Positions 145 through 62,015 are shown, numbered from the whole stretch's first letter. The stretch is DNA of 63,243 nt, filler included, from Reclinomonas americana ATCC 50394 (GCA_048213135.1; 12 parts of 12 records of this genome joined end to end with filler, not necessarily neighbours in it), one strand, 5' to 3'. Notes: a model not told the origin generated them from the sequence alone. Numbers and translations are program-made.

Positions 145-985
145 CTACGAGCTGCACATTCAAGACAAGCGGCTGCCGTACTTGGAGCCGAATGTCAGCA
201 TCAAGAGCCAGTTGCTGGTGCGCGACATCATGAGACCTGTGAACGAGCTCGCCGTGCTGCACAGCGTGTCGACATTGGCCGAACTGAGTTGCGTCAGCGC
301 TGCACACGAATGCCTTACGTATCCCTCTCGCACGCAGCTGACATTCGATGTGCGCACAGAGTCGGCGGTCAACACGCACAAGTTCCGCGGCTACCCCGTG
401 ATCAACGCAGAGACCAACACCTTTGTCGGCTACGTTTCGCGCCTGTCACTCCATCAGGTCATTCGCGACTGCGAACAGAACCCGGCCGTGCGCGCCATGG
501 ACAGCCCCGTGTGCATCTTCAAGTGGAGCGACGAGCTGGCCGCCCAGAGCGCCAATGTCATTGACTTTAGTGGCACGCTCGACATGGCGCCGGTGCAGCT
601 GCTGGACACCACCCCTCTGCACCGCATCTACGCCTTCTTCACCAGCATGGGCATTCGCTACTGCGTGCTGGTCGACGAGGGCCAGTTCGTGGGCCTGCTG
701 ACCAAGAACGACCTCATCAAGCACATCGACATTGAGCATCACAACCTCGACGAGAAGGATCACCGCCTGCCGCCCGACCTGCCTCCACCGCCACCAGCAC
801 ACCTCGCCACGCCACGTCGCGCGCTCAGCAGCACCGACAGCGCCTTCCCGCACTTGGAGACCGATTCGTCGCTGGCCTACCAGAGCTCGTCGCCCATGTC
901 GGACCCGGATCCTTCGCCCGTCGTCATGCCGCAACCGCCACCTTTCCCGCTGCGAACCGGCGCCGCAGGTGGACGTCGTCTATAG
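145..985 (+). CDS. CLC chloride channel/transporter, C-terminal CBS domains (5' partial); exons 145-287, 360-985
   Basis: YELHIQDKRLPYLEP is the post-membrane CLC motif. It is followed by CBS-like segments STLAELK|SAVNTHKFRGYPV and LHRIYAFFTSMGIRYCVLVDEGQFVGLLTKNDL. Intron 288-359 (GTTGCG...CAG). Confidence 0.85.
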
Positions 986-1101
986 CTTTAAAGAGAAAAA
1001 GATTATTATCCAATGTGGAGGAGTAAAAGCCTCGAAGTGAGAGTTGTCTTTGCTGAAAAAGGTCCTGTGGGCTTTGTGTTTGAAAAGGCGGGAGAGGAGA
1101 G

Positions 1102-1676
1102 ATGTTTGGCCTGGTGACTCTGCTCACCAAATGGCCACTGCGCATGGTCGGCTACTCTGCGCGACTCACACGCAACGCCTTTATCAGTGTGCTTGCACTG
1201 CTCGCCATTGGTGAGCGCGCGCGGGAGAGAGAGAGAAAGAGAGTCACACTTGTCTCTCACACTCTCAATCTCACACAGACCACTTGTACTTGCACCACGA
1301 GCTTCTGAAAGTGGAGTACTGGCGCGTCTTTGGGCGTCCCTACGAGCCTCTGGCACAGCGTTTGATGCACAACTTGGACGACAAGATCACTGCGCATTTC
1401 AATGGATCTCAACGCGCTCTTCCCGCTCCTCCTGCCAAGTCAACAGAGAGCACTGCTGGTGGGGGACCACCAGAGGCAGCTGGACCTGCGTGGGCCACGA
1501 CTCGACCTGTGCTGGGCGCAGGTGGAGGCGCAGTGGGCGTGCATGAACGCGGAGTGTCGACTGTTGCCTCGGCGGCGGAGGATGTAGCAGAGTCGATGGT
1601 GTACGGGCGAGCGGCATCGCGACGACGAGCTCGACTGGCGACTGTGATGCCTGCAGAGTCGGCATCGTCGCCTTGA
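1102..1676 (+). CDS. Hypothetical small membrane-anchored protein; exons 1102-1210, 1279-1676
   Basis: ATG with a hydrophobic N-terminus. A 68-nt GTGAGC...CAG intron joins it in frame to ORF 1284-1676. No recognisable domain. Confidence 0.5.
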
Positions 1677-1849
1677 CGAAGAGGAGGGAATGAATGAGTG
1701 AGTGAGGAAATCTGGTTCATTGTTGCCAAACAGTCACAGGAGCACAGAGGGAGAAGGGCAAGTGGGGGACGAAGGAGAAGGGACAGACGGTGATTTAGCG
1801 CTGTGGACCGTCGGTGAACTCGAGATCGTCGAGGCCTCTGCTCTCCATC

Positions 1850-59900: not shown

Positions 59901-61299
59901 GAGAGCGGAGCAAGCGGGATGAGCAAGACGGACTGAGAGAAAGCAGGAGGAGAAAGAGATCGCATGGAGCAAGTGGATGTGTAACGTAGAGAGAGAGAGA
60001 GAGAGGCTGATTGTTTTGGATGTGACCTGTTCTGCCTTGGTCGAAATCGCCACCACGCCTCGCTGTGAGGATCATCTGCTGCTCTTGTATACTGACTCAG
60101 GTGATTCGCAGCGAGCACAACTTGGCGCACCGACTGCTGCAGTGGGCGGAGCGCGGACTGCCGGCCATGTCGATTGAGGCGCGAATGACGTGCATGCTGC
60201 GATGTGCCGAAGCAGTTGCCTCGCTGCATAAGTTGCGCTCCAATATCTTGTTGTATGTTGCTTTGCTCTCCATTTCTTTGGACTCACCTTGTGCTTACGG
60301 ATAATGCAGGCATGTGAGTGAGGGAGATCATGCACATTCGTGTGGTTCCGGTATCATTCTCTTTGTTGACTGACTCGTGTCTTTTTGTTCGTTTGTCGCG
60401 ATGCGCAGAATGGTACGTGTGTCTGTTCTCAACCCTTCTCTCATATAGTTCCACTCACTTGTTCCCCCTCTCCCTCAGTGATCCATCGCGACCTGAAGCC
60501 AGCCAACATTCTGTTCAACCACAGTGGAATGGCATACATCTCGGACCTGGGAGTGGCGCACTGGTTCCGCACCGAGGGAGTGAGTGATCCATTCCTGCAC
60601 GCTCTCCCTTCCCGTTCCCTCATCCTTCCCTTCCTCGTGCGCATGGCACAGACGCACTTGTCAGTGCACTTTGCTGGCGACCCGAAGTATGCCGATCCTA
60701 AGGCCATGCATGGCCAGCTGCGACTGAGTTCGGATGTGTTCTCGCTCGGTCTCGTCCTCCTACAAGTGTTCAGCGGCCTGCCGATTGAAGAGGTGCATCG
60801 GCGAGTGGAGACACTGGAGGAAATGGATGACATTGACGGCGACGACGGTGAAGCATTCCTCAATGCCGCGGTGGAGCTGGCGGATGGTGGTGTCGGTCGA
60901 CCATGGCCGGCTCCTGTGTGTGAGCAGATTGTGCGATTGGCACTGAGGTTTGTGTGTTTCCAAGAGAGAGTGCGAGGGAACATACTTGGCTGACATACAT
61001 GACAAATCTGCAGATGTCTGGATGGCCGCCCAGCACGCCGTCCGACGGCGCAGCAACTGGCGAGCGAGCTGAGTGATCTCACGGTGTTGTCGTGCCGACG
61101 GGCGTGCATGGTGTGCGATGGACTGCGCGAAACGCGACTGCGTCCGTGCATGCACCAAGTCTTGTGCCGGAAGTGCGCGGAGCGGCTGGTAAGCAAGAGT
61201 GGCGAGTGTCCGGTGTGCCGCGTGCGAGTGGAGGGCGTGGATGCGGGTGAGGGGTACGGATTCCACACGTTTGTGGCTCCACCGCCGGCGCGGCGGTGA
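56970..61299 (+). CDS. TPR repeats (kinesin-light-chain type) - coiled coil - IRAK/Pelle/RLK-like kinase - C3HC4 RING protein
   Basis: TPR units with G.DH..TL spacers; Q/E-rich heptads 58800-59270; kinase FSWEQV..MSNNF, GDGGQGKV, VAIK, IHRDLKPANIL, DLG, YADP, SDVFSLG, WP....LALRC...RRP; RING CMVC...PCMH..LCRKC...CPVCR. Confidence 0.88.
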
Positions 61300-61408
61300 T
61301 GTGCGAGGATAGGTAGAAGACAGTTTGTAGAGTTGACTTGCGAGTTAGTGAACAATTTCTAACCAACTATCGACGATGGCGAGCACTTTTTTTCCAGTGG
61401 TTCCTTAA

Positions 61409-62015
61409 TTACTCCTTCTCCACCACCACCTGCGACGAACCCGAACTCGCAGCAGAGACCGACACGGCCGGCGGCATACTAACCGGACTGTGATGTGCCT
61501 CACCATCAGCATCATCATCATCATCCTCCAAATCAACATCCCCGGGCTGCTGATCCGACGAACTCGCATCGAGTGCCGGTGGCGGTGGCGGTGCCGGCGG
61601 CGAAGCAGAGTGCCAGGCCACCGCGGCCGCCGTTGGCGACAACGGCATCTTTTGCGCACTCGACAAGTCGTCGAAATGAATCGGTGGCATAGGCTTGAAA
61701 GGAGTGCCGCCAGCCATGAGCCACGGAGAGCCGGGTGACTCCAGCCCGGTGCTAGGAGGTGGGGGAGCGCGAGGGGCGCTAACTGCAACGGGCAAGGACA
61801 ACAAGAGTCAGGCAACAACGCCGACACAGCCACACAACAATTCTCTCTCCGCAACATTCGGGTCGCACGGGCGTGGAGAACTCGGTGGGTGCCACTGGCT
61901 GCGCTTCCGGCGACGAAGGCTCGACCACCGGGCGGCTTCGTCGTGATGAGTGCACCGTCGTGGCGCCACTGTCACTTCTGCCACAATAATCGATGAGTCC
62001 GCGTCACTTCCTAAC
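61409..62015 (-). CDS. 3' end of a hypothetical Pro/Ser-rich protein; intron 61783-61855
   Basis: Two exons are joined in frame by a GTTGCG...CAG intron and end in TAA at 61409. Confidence 0.45.

Follow-up and report, generated by a model that had tools for sequence, protein, structure and literature searches.

A stretch of 63,243 nucleotides (nt) from Reclinomonas americana ATCC 50394 (GCA_048213135.1), hereafter the window, carries introns with two kinds of 5' splice site. Beside the ordinary donor, G/GUGNGU, where the slash marks the end of the exon, stands a second class, H/GUUGCG(U), in which H is any base other than G, and the introns that begin with it are GT-AG introns, taken here to be spliced by the ordinary (major) spliceosome. 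The two are referred to below as N donors (ordinary type) and S donors (GTTGCG type). Exon bases are numbered backwards from -1 and intron bases forwards from +1, while coordinates count from the first letter of the window, donors being named by the position of their first base. The S form is used only where the exon ends in a base other than G, with a candidate G/GTTGCG exception at 15229. Such a class had been proposed in a first-pass annotation of the same sequence, and the observation is confirmed here and extended. As to how these donors are recognised, the best explanation, to which we would give a probability of about 45%, is that they form a class of the major spliceosome read one base out of register by an adapted U1 small nuclear RNA (snRNA).

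Occurrence of the S donor

All 30 coordinates listed in the first-pass annotation begin with GT and carry the motif reported for them (GTTGCG at 26, GTTGAG at two, GTTTCG and GTTCCG at one each), and every one of the 30 has A, C or T before the cut. The four donors that had been set apart as unshifted despite a non-G exon end are likewise present, as T/GTGAGT at 33880 (minus strand), 58564 and 60314 and as A/GTGAGT at 60580. Nineteen of the listed sites are used as donors by a codon-level gene finder whose donor model is blind to the exon bases, four further ones (2810, 22377, 24120 and 28382) are pinned by homology, and at the other seven (14577, 20878, 27182, 31106, 34339, 52463 and 60232) the support is that of the motif, with plausible 3' signals at five. 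Eight additional S donors are predicted, at 42778, 43203, 47330, 47598, 48082, 49682 and 17430 on the minus strand and at 15229 on the plus strand. Since GTTGCG occurs 78 times in the window, counting both strands, the first-pass annotation had seen only part of the picture.

Counts on both strands were set against 100 shuffles that preserve dinucleotide composition. HGTTGCG is found 69 times where 38.3 +/- 6.0 copies are expected, a number reached in none of the 100 shuffles, whereas GGTTGCG is at chance (10 observed, 10.7 +/- 3.6 expected). The excess of about 31 copies therefore lies entirely after bases other than G; at a background G share of about 22%, it would have added about nine copies of GGTTGCG. 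For the N class, similar counting yields GGTGMGT 54 times (22.9 expected) and HGTGMGT 132 times (80.5 expected), but (GAGT)n and (GT)n repeats, and probably CTCAC-like branch motifs in reverse complement, confound these numbers, which were set aside as evidence.

Dependence on the last exon base

The association with the exon end was assessed with a dynamic-programming gene finder working at the codon level, which uses open frames, a weak codon bias (about 0.1 nat per codon), intron length, a CTNAY motif and a YAG end, GT being the only donor signal. Its first pass returned 92 introns, with G at -1 in 0 of 14 S calls (GTTG[ACT]G) and 29 of 45 N calls (G at +5; Fisher p = 1.7e-5), while 32 donors fitted neither class and one lay in a GT repeat. 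Several donors of this initial pass were 9 to 39 bases off, and a 3-nt exon was overlooked. A two-component mixture fitted to positions +3 to +8 of 80 introns, taken from genes scoring 10 or more, recovered the classes without prior specification as GTG[ATC]GT (65%) and GTTGCGT (27%). Re-scoring with this mixture shifted 24 donors to in-frame alternatives, several of which are sites of the first-pass annotation (5609, 13149, 37213, 39688 and 40398). A second pass with the mixture as donor score, again blind to the exon, gave 73 introns with G at -1 in 1 of 25 S and 25 of 36 N donors (p = 1.7e-7), five further calls falling in GT repeats and seven being of other kinds; two of the N calls with a non-G exon end are known to be wrong (22124 for 22142 and 40437 for 40398). 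Measured against background, the depletion of G before S donors is moderate, G preceding 12 of 82 unpredicted GTTGCG or GTTGAG copies.

The dependence of the S form on a non-G exon end, which had been claimed from inspection of the window, is thus borne out there by the exon-blind predictions and the shuffle counts. The claim that the class serves a large share of introns also holds, S donors making up between 14 of 59 and 25 of 61 of the classed donors (24-41%).

Cut positions in conserved genes

The position of the cut was located by comparing exons with solved structures and with profiles of homologues (67 anoctamins and 58 PCYT2 homologues), every in-frame junction model being scored in the anoctamin gene regardless of its dinucleotides. 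Protein alignments and profiles agree that the introns are cut at the GTs proposed in the first-pass annotation for nine S donors (2433, 2810, 22377, 24120, 28382, 29705, 30472, 30610 and 30937), none of which follows a G. Six N donors are fixed in the same manner (22142, 22613, 22832, 28311, 28569 and 30753), and all six follow a G. The exact probability of a 0 of 9 against 6 of 6 split is 1 in 5005.

The PCYT2-like and anoctamin introns are all on the plus strand. In the former gene, the 58-nt S intron A/GTTGCGCC (29705..29762) separates an upstream exon ending at residue 121 of human PCYT2 (3elb_A) from a downstream exon that continues from 122, its third residue being 124; the alignment is gap-free, and this is the best GT-AG choice by 28 bits. 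At the 61-nt intron C/GTTGCGTG (30472..30532), F corresponds to residue 210 of 3elb_A and the A and G of the next exon to 212 and 213, with the split codon c/ac supplying His 211, which is the human residue too. Only the GT named in the first-pass annotation restores this His at human PCYT2 position 211, and the junction ranks top among 1172 models scored with the PCYT2 profile. The 65-nt intron C/GTTGCGCA (30610..30674) falls gap-free between residues 238 and 239 of 3elb_A and is the best GT-AG choice by 15 bits, and the N control G/GTGAGGAG (30753..30807) falls gap-free between 264 and 265 with the top score. The profile supports these four junctions and adds the 3-nt exon described below, the N control G/GTGAGTGT (28569..29524, 956 nt; top score, 149.1 bits) and the 71-nt S intron T/GTTGAGTG (30937..31007), the best GT-AG pair at 47.2 against 40.9 bits. 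Because exon 31008-31103 has no match in the PDB, the evidence for 30937 is that of the profile. The N intron at 30753 sits between the S introns at 30610 and 30937, S and N introns alternating within genes. A further S donor, T/GTTGCGTT at 31106..31111, stands where the profile alignment of its exon stops.

The 3-nt micro-exon is CAT at 28379..28381. Directly 5' of it is the 68-nt N intron G/GTGCGCGT (28311..28378) and directly 3' the 62-nt S intron T/GTTGCGCG (28382..28443), all three being placed by the profile of PCYT2 homologues. With this exon the profile scores 86.5 bits and without it 74.8, profile position 71 (H) then being skipped. CAT encodes the first His of DLMHYGH, a conserved and presumably catalytic residue. 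Pfam gave no match for the two exons flanking the micro-exon, and an initial homologue search with the PCYT2-like open reading frame (ORF) at longer lengths gave none either. In the 5' part of this gene, the S intron T/GTTGCGTG is predicted from 28155 with 64 nt and with 85 nt (28155..28218, or acceptor at 28239). T/GTGAGTGTGG at 28489 resembles a strong donor yet belongs to coding sequence that the profile matches as far as position 112. The motif GTGAGT by itself is insufficient for a donor here.

In the anoctamin gene, the 250-nt S intron A/GTTGCGTG (24120..24369), whose cut had been placed in the first-pass annotation by a protein motif, leads the GT-AG pairs scored with the profile of 67 anoctamins by 13 bits (298.8 against 285.8), and the 62-nt S variant A/GTTTCGAT (22377..22438) is the best by about 10 bits (52.3 against 42.6). 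The N controls here are G/GTTCGTAA (22142..22197; top of 790 junction models, 91.1 bits), G/GTGAGTGC (22613..22675; best GT-AG pair by about 10 bits) and the 816-nt G/GTGCGTTG (22832..23647; top score, 257.3 bits). The fixed anoctamin set leaves out junction J3 (about 22514-22521 to 22574). The predicted 68-nt S intron A/GTTGCGTT (24681..24748) is the sole in-frame GT-AG pair at its junction, yet a cut at GTT/GCG scores 3.8 bits higher (117.0 against 113.2), and it is therefore not counted as fixed by homology.

Two S introns lie in the Nam8/TIA-1-like RRM gene on the minus strand. The 65-nt C/GTTGCGTC (2369..2433), which is also predicted by the gene finder, is gap-free against yeast Nam8 5zwn_V (K103 = 330, split Ala = 331, H1 = 332). 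The 66-nt T/GTTGCGTT (2745..2810), placed by homology, is gap-free against 2dhg_A (F60 = 27, N1 = 28), with an offset of one residue against PUB1 3md3_A and a weak match of the upstream exon (E = 0.12). The latter intron ends in AAG, not the usual CAG.

Anatomy of the two classes

For the sequence logos, 38 S donors (the 30 listed and the eight new ones) were set beside 26 curated N donors. The S donors have A at -1 in 15, T in 15, C in 7 and G in 1; they have T at +3 in all 38, G at +4 in 36, C at +5 in 36 (A in 2), G at +6 in all 38, and T or C at +7 in 26 and 9, respectively. As the set is partly defined by GTTG[ACT]G, positions +3, +4 and +6 are constrained, while the C at +5 is free. The N donors have G at -1 in 19, G, A or T at +3 in 18, 6 and 2, A, T or C at +4 in 11, 8 and 7, and T at +6 in 15, the G at +5 in 26 of 26 being given by the class definition. 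When the two are slid by one base, S read from +1 (G-T-T-G-C-G-T) and N read from -1 (G-G-T-G-N-G-T) mismatch at the second position only. At every other position the slid S donor matches the N consensus, and its G(+1) occupies the place of the ordinary G(-1).

In the curated sets the lengths are alike, with a median near 68 nt for S and 65 nt for N, and both classes occur in all three phases. The acceptor GCAG is common to both, with C at acceptor position -3 in 33 of 36 S and 24 of 26 N introns, a GT start and an AG end having been required in building the candidate set. A CTNAY-like branch motif is visible in most S 3' ends; it was scored or required 8-45 nt before the AG during set-building and, being required for the N set and part of the intron score, does not separate S from N. 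Introns of the U12 type have the donor consensus RTATCCTT. A U12-type identity of the S introns was rejected on the ground that their donor, GTTGCGY, is unlike a U12 donor; a U12-type branch site was not scanned for.

Pairing with U1 and the proposed reading

Shifted-register 5' splice sites were reportedly described in human genes by Roca and Krainer in 2009, and the preferred explanation builds on the same geometry. On this explanation S sites would be bound by the same RNAs as ordinary donors, U1 first and U6 afterwards, but displaced by one base from the cut. G(+1) would stand in for G(-1), U(+3) for U(+2) and G(+6) for G(+5), and the spliceosome would then cut at the only GU present. This would require a non-standard U1 5' end, most simply one with G opposite C(+5). 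The heptamer would, on this proposal, be nearly invariant because one mismatch within the helix makes every other pair necessary.

Nearest-neighbour duplex energies were calculated for donor positions -4 to +9 as unmodified RNA, pseudouridines and proteins being ignored, with the standard U1 5' end taken as AUACUUACCUG, in the form printed in PMC4856993. N donors pair with it at a mean of -6.4 kcal/mol in the canonical register (26 donors) and at -7.1 as a free duplex. For 36 S donors the values are -0.08 kcal/mol in the canonical register, -0.45 in the shifted register, -0.32 with +3 bulged and -1.27 in a free fold, the shifted and canonical energies both being negligible. The shifted register of the standard U1 furthermore prefers GUUGAG (-5.1) over GUUGCG (-0.7), while 36 of the 38 S donors in the genome have C(+5). 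Since no stable S duplex forms and C(+5) is disfavoured, the standard U1 with a simple Roca-Krainer shift does not account for the class. This would imply a U1 with an altered 5' end or an additional U1-like RNA, and adapted or variant snRNAs had already been named as an implication in the first-pass annotation. The U1-shift interpretation of the first-pass annotation is accordingly supported in part: its one-base geometry is right, with G(+1) at the place of G(-1), and the mechanism is more demanding than it had assumed.

All 1024 choices at U1 positions 4-8 were scanned, with 23 N donors after three superseded rows had been dropped. The standard end gives -1.3 kcal/mol for S and -7.1 for N, AUACGUACCUG gives -4.6 and -8.0, and AUACGCACCUG gives -6.5 and -7.8. 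The best for S are AUACGCAGCUG (-10.6) and AUACGCAACUG (-10.5), with the ends ACGCAG and ACGCAA, which reach only -5.4 and -4.7 for N. A hypothetical G5 U1 would pair with A/GUUGCGU at -6.6 kcal/mol in the shifted register (G(+1) on C9) and with A/GUUGAGU at -2.9, thereby reproducing the preference for C(+5), and with N donors at a mean of -8.0.

Several points weigh against reading by an adapted U1 out of register. The S donors pair with the standard U1 in no register. The G5 U1 binds H/GUGCGU (-8.3) better than H/GUUGCGU (-6.6), and G/GUUGCGU (-8.0) better than A/GUUGCGU (-6.6), so that pairing energy accounts neither for the use of S after non-G nor for the avoidance of G(-1). In every model tried, H/GUGCGU outpairs H/GUUGCGU and G/GUUGCGU pairs equally well or better than A/GUUGCGU; none of these models accounts for the avoidance of G(-1). 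In addition, the preference of N donors for A(+4) (11 A, 8 T and 7 C of 26) fits the standard U1 over the G5 U1, and two other lineages that have C at +4 possess standard U1s according to preprint 10.1101/2022.06.08.495308. A more elaborate version, in which there are two donor codes, G/GUGNGU read by a standard-like U1 and H/GUUGCGU, in roughly a third of introns, read out of register by a second or re-tuned U1, with the last exon base deciding between them, is possible but rather doubtful.

Alternative explanations

The S donors might be read by a U1-like snRNA of their own, whose 5' end is complementary to GUUGCGU (ACGCAAC-like), and the N donors by the standard U1. The nearly invariant heptamer would be expected from such full pairing, the U1 ends best for S are poor for N just as the standard end suits N (-7.1) but does not serve S (-1.3), and the A(+4) preference of N fits the standard U1; one slime mould, moreover, has both standard and modified U1 candidates according to a passing remark in preprint 10.1101/2022.06.08.495308. 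Such an RNA would pair nearly equally with G/GUUGCGU (-12.6) and A/GUUGCGU (-12.9 kcal/mol), however, leaving the -1 rule unexplained, and the close match between S and N on sliding by one base would then be a coincidence. This alternative is judged unlikely, if far from negligible. A bulged register, with G(+1) and U(+2) on C8 and A7, one U bulging and GCGU pairing one step along as in the human +2/+3 bulge, appears improbable. Registers of this kind are established in human cells, with 68 predicted +2/+3 cases in PMC4856993; as many base pairs form as in the shifted register, and the fold of G/GUUGCGU on the G5 U1 takes the bulged form. Yet G(-1) on C9 would help a bulged donor and is absent from 37 of 38 S donors, the bulged base need not be U although the blind mixture gives T at +3 a weight of 0.80, and the energy on the standard U1 is about zero (-0.32 kcal/mol).

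The remaining alternatives concern the origin or the reality of the motif. Were the S introns copies of a mobile introner with its own GTTGCG end, inserting at non-G sites, the motif would reflect origin and not recognition, and the uniform 5' end, narrow lengths and target-site bias at -1 would all be accounted for. The first 12 of 87 blastn-short pairs (E <= 1; 62 interiors) are, however, exact words of 9-11 nt, at least the repeated 20878-2433 matches among them appearing to lie in GA/CT-rich stretches. Lengths and acceptors are also the same as those of N introns, and donors must be recognised whatever their origin, so that we hold this very improbable. It is scarcely credible that the pattern is an artefact of selection by eye, or that the true introns are GC-AG introns cut three bases later (GTT/GCG). 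The higher score of the later cut at 24681 would fit the second of these, but blind predictions and shuffle counts reproduce the pattern. A GC-AG cut was rejected at 30472, where it destroys the conserved His, and it is disfavoured at 29705, 30610 and 2433, where it adds a residue to gap-free alignments.

Further S introns in the window

On the plus strand, the 72-nt S intron A/GTTGCGTC (288..359) in a CBS-domain (CLC-like) gene is predicted blind to the -1 base, and only the acceptor at 72 nt opens the CBS frame of 207 amino acids. Predicted introns on this strand also include C/GTTGCGCA (35634..35689, 56 nt), T/GTTGCGTT (37213..37277, 65 nt), T/GTTGCGTC (37505..37573, 69 nt) and A/GTTGAGTT (37604..37673, 70 nt), together with two in a SET-domain gene, T/GTTGCGTT (39688..39749, 62 nt) and T/GTTGCGTG (40398..40471, 74 nt). 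At the last of these, the Pfam SET profile aligns over positions 1-75 before the junction and 76-105 after it, with six unaligned residues between. On the minus strand, A/GTTGCGTC (5535..5609, 75 nt) is predicted with the donor model blind to -1, as are, among the gene-finder predictions, A/GTTGCGTT (6552..6630, 79 nt), A/GTTGCGCG (13092..13149, 58 nt), T/GTTGCGTC (50162..50223, 62 nt) and, in a low-scoring gene, T/GTTGCGGA (61783..61855, 73 nt). The new S introns predicted on this strand are T/GTTGCGTT (42715..42778, 64 nt), T/GTTGCGTG (43131..43203, 73 nt), which is predicted even with GT as the sole donor signal, C/GTTGCGTC (47255..47330, 76 nt), A/GTTGCGAC (47531..47598, 68 nt), C/GTTGCGTC (47819..48082, 264 nt) and T/GTTGCGTG (49615..49682, 68 nt).

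Other sites are candidates. The sole case with G at -1, G/GTTGCGTG (15229..15305, plus strand), has good 3' signals in a weak gene (score 5), and T/GTTGCGTC (17346..17430, minus strand, 85 nt) is predicted in a gene of score 3. Motif and 3' signals are the evidence for A/GTTGCGTT (14508..14577, minus strand, about 70 nt), which is absent from the predictions, and, on the plus strand, for C/GTTGCGCG (20878..20949), A/GTTGCGCC (52463..52536) and A/GTTGCGCT (60232..60309, 78 nt). A possible second micro-exon, of 4 nt (GCAT, 60310-60313), would lie between the last of these and the donor T/GTGAGTGA at 60314. A/GTTGCGTT (34339..34403, plus strand) has the motif, is followed by a G-rich 3' region and is absent from the predictions. 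The variant donor A/GTTCCG of the first-pass annotation (27177..27182, minus strand) is unsupported, with no acceptor found and the sequence entering a (CA)n repeat.

Genes and composition of the window

The window has a G+C content of about 56% over its 63 kb and consists of contigs chained by eleven N44-TTAATTAATTAA-N44 linkers, one at 1850-1949 and ten others, the PCYT2-like gene running across the join at 29980-30079. Its genes are eukaryotic and intron-rich, with introns of about 55-85 nt in which a CTNAY-like motif stands a short way before a terminal GCAG. A Pfam scan of 150 of the 192 ORFs of at least 125 amino acids identified CBS/CLC-like, three-RRM, anoctamin, two-domain cytidylyltransferase (PCYT2-like), SET, TFIIIC-like, Myb and TPR genes, and a protein atlas look-up confirmed the anoctamin family; the clusters of five anoctamin matches bore no informative names. 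Metagenome contigs related to an anoctamin exon comprised 14 loci, all of them at 42% identity or less and thus too distant for orthologous introns to be compared.

Three introns stand out by length from the population of about 65 nt, namely those of 816 nt (22832-23647), 956 nt (28569-29524) and 250 nt (24120-24369), all on the plus strand. At least the first two, when read in frame, are of low complexity and rich in Leu, Ser and Pro, and the gene finder initially called them coding. The three-RRM gene (2077-3854, minus strand), which harbours two S-type introns, is closest to yeast Nam8 (5zwn_V, E = 3.4e-20) and TIA-1; Nam8 is, according to an abstract, a U1 auxiliary protein in yeast. No snRNA gene was found in the window with Rfam at the gathering threshold, the sole match being a 5S rRNA gene (32729-32848, minus strand; RF00001, 103 bits), which is isolated among protein genes.

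Comparison with other systems and implications

Like the S donors, the human shifted-register donors are cut one base upstream of the position that the U1 helix would dictate, have G(+1) opposite C9 and G(+6) opposite C4, and follow an exon end other than G. They are, however, an atypical minority, whereas 24-41% of classed donors are involved here. Human sites of this type pair with the standard U1 at -6.5 to -7.6 kcal/mol, a test oligonucleotide being ACA/GUCAAGUAUA (both from PMC4856993), while GUUGCG reaches only -0.7 kcal/mol, C(+5) being the wrong base for the standard U1. The fixed heptamer further sets the class in the window apart. A bulge +2/+3 register is said to have been described by Roca et al. 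in 2012, and the S donors resemble its sites in beginning with GUU and in having the conserved G displaced by one position; unlike them, bulge sites keep and profit from G(-1), which is found in 1 of 38 S donors.

Two major 5' splice-site classes have been distinguished by pairing with U5 loop 1 or the U6 ACAGA sequence (PMC11732430). In a separate scheme, donors divide into left- and right-handed types by their dependence on LUC7. The classes of both schemes share with the present ones a contrast between donors that depend on a final exon G at -1 and donors that depend on intron bases, but they use one register and overlap smoothly, in contrast to the one-base displacement and near all-or-none split at -1 seen here. 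Co-evolved U1s are given for Entamoeba and Mastigamoeba in the available part of preprint 10.1101/2022.06.08.495308, with ACAAAC for GUUUGU and ACGUAC with GUGCGC donors. There too an atypical donor is matched by an altered U1, and G opposite C is what the S donors would need; these organisms have one donor class in the normal register, and that part of the preprint describes no second, slid class tied to -1. Among the literature matches listed for the motif with splicing and for a shifted U1 register, there is no comparable donor class, nor is there a genome paper for the organism.

Together, these features point to the S class as an unusual mode of intron-start recognition. Pairing of U1 out of register concerns a small minority of human sites and is usually regarded as something the system tolerates rather than as a design feature. 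A genome that relied on one fixed out-of-register heptamer for at least a quarter of its introns would differ from this, with a near all-or-none rule at -1 and a standard U1 unable to pair. Gene prediction based on a single donor matrix will go wrong in such genes. If the reading is true, the organism would offer a natural experiment on the choice of the cleavage site independently of the U1 helix, on the handover from U1 to U6, and on the co-evolution of snRNAs with splice signals.

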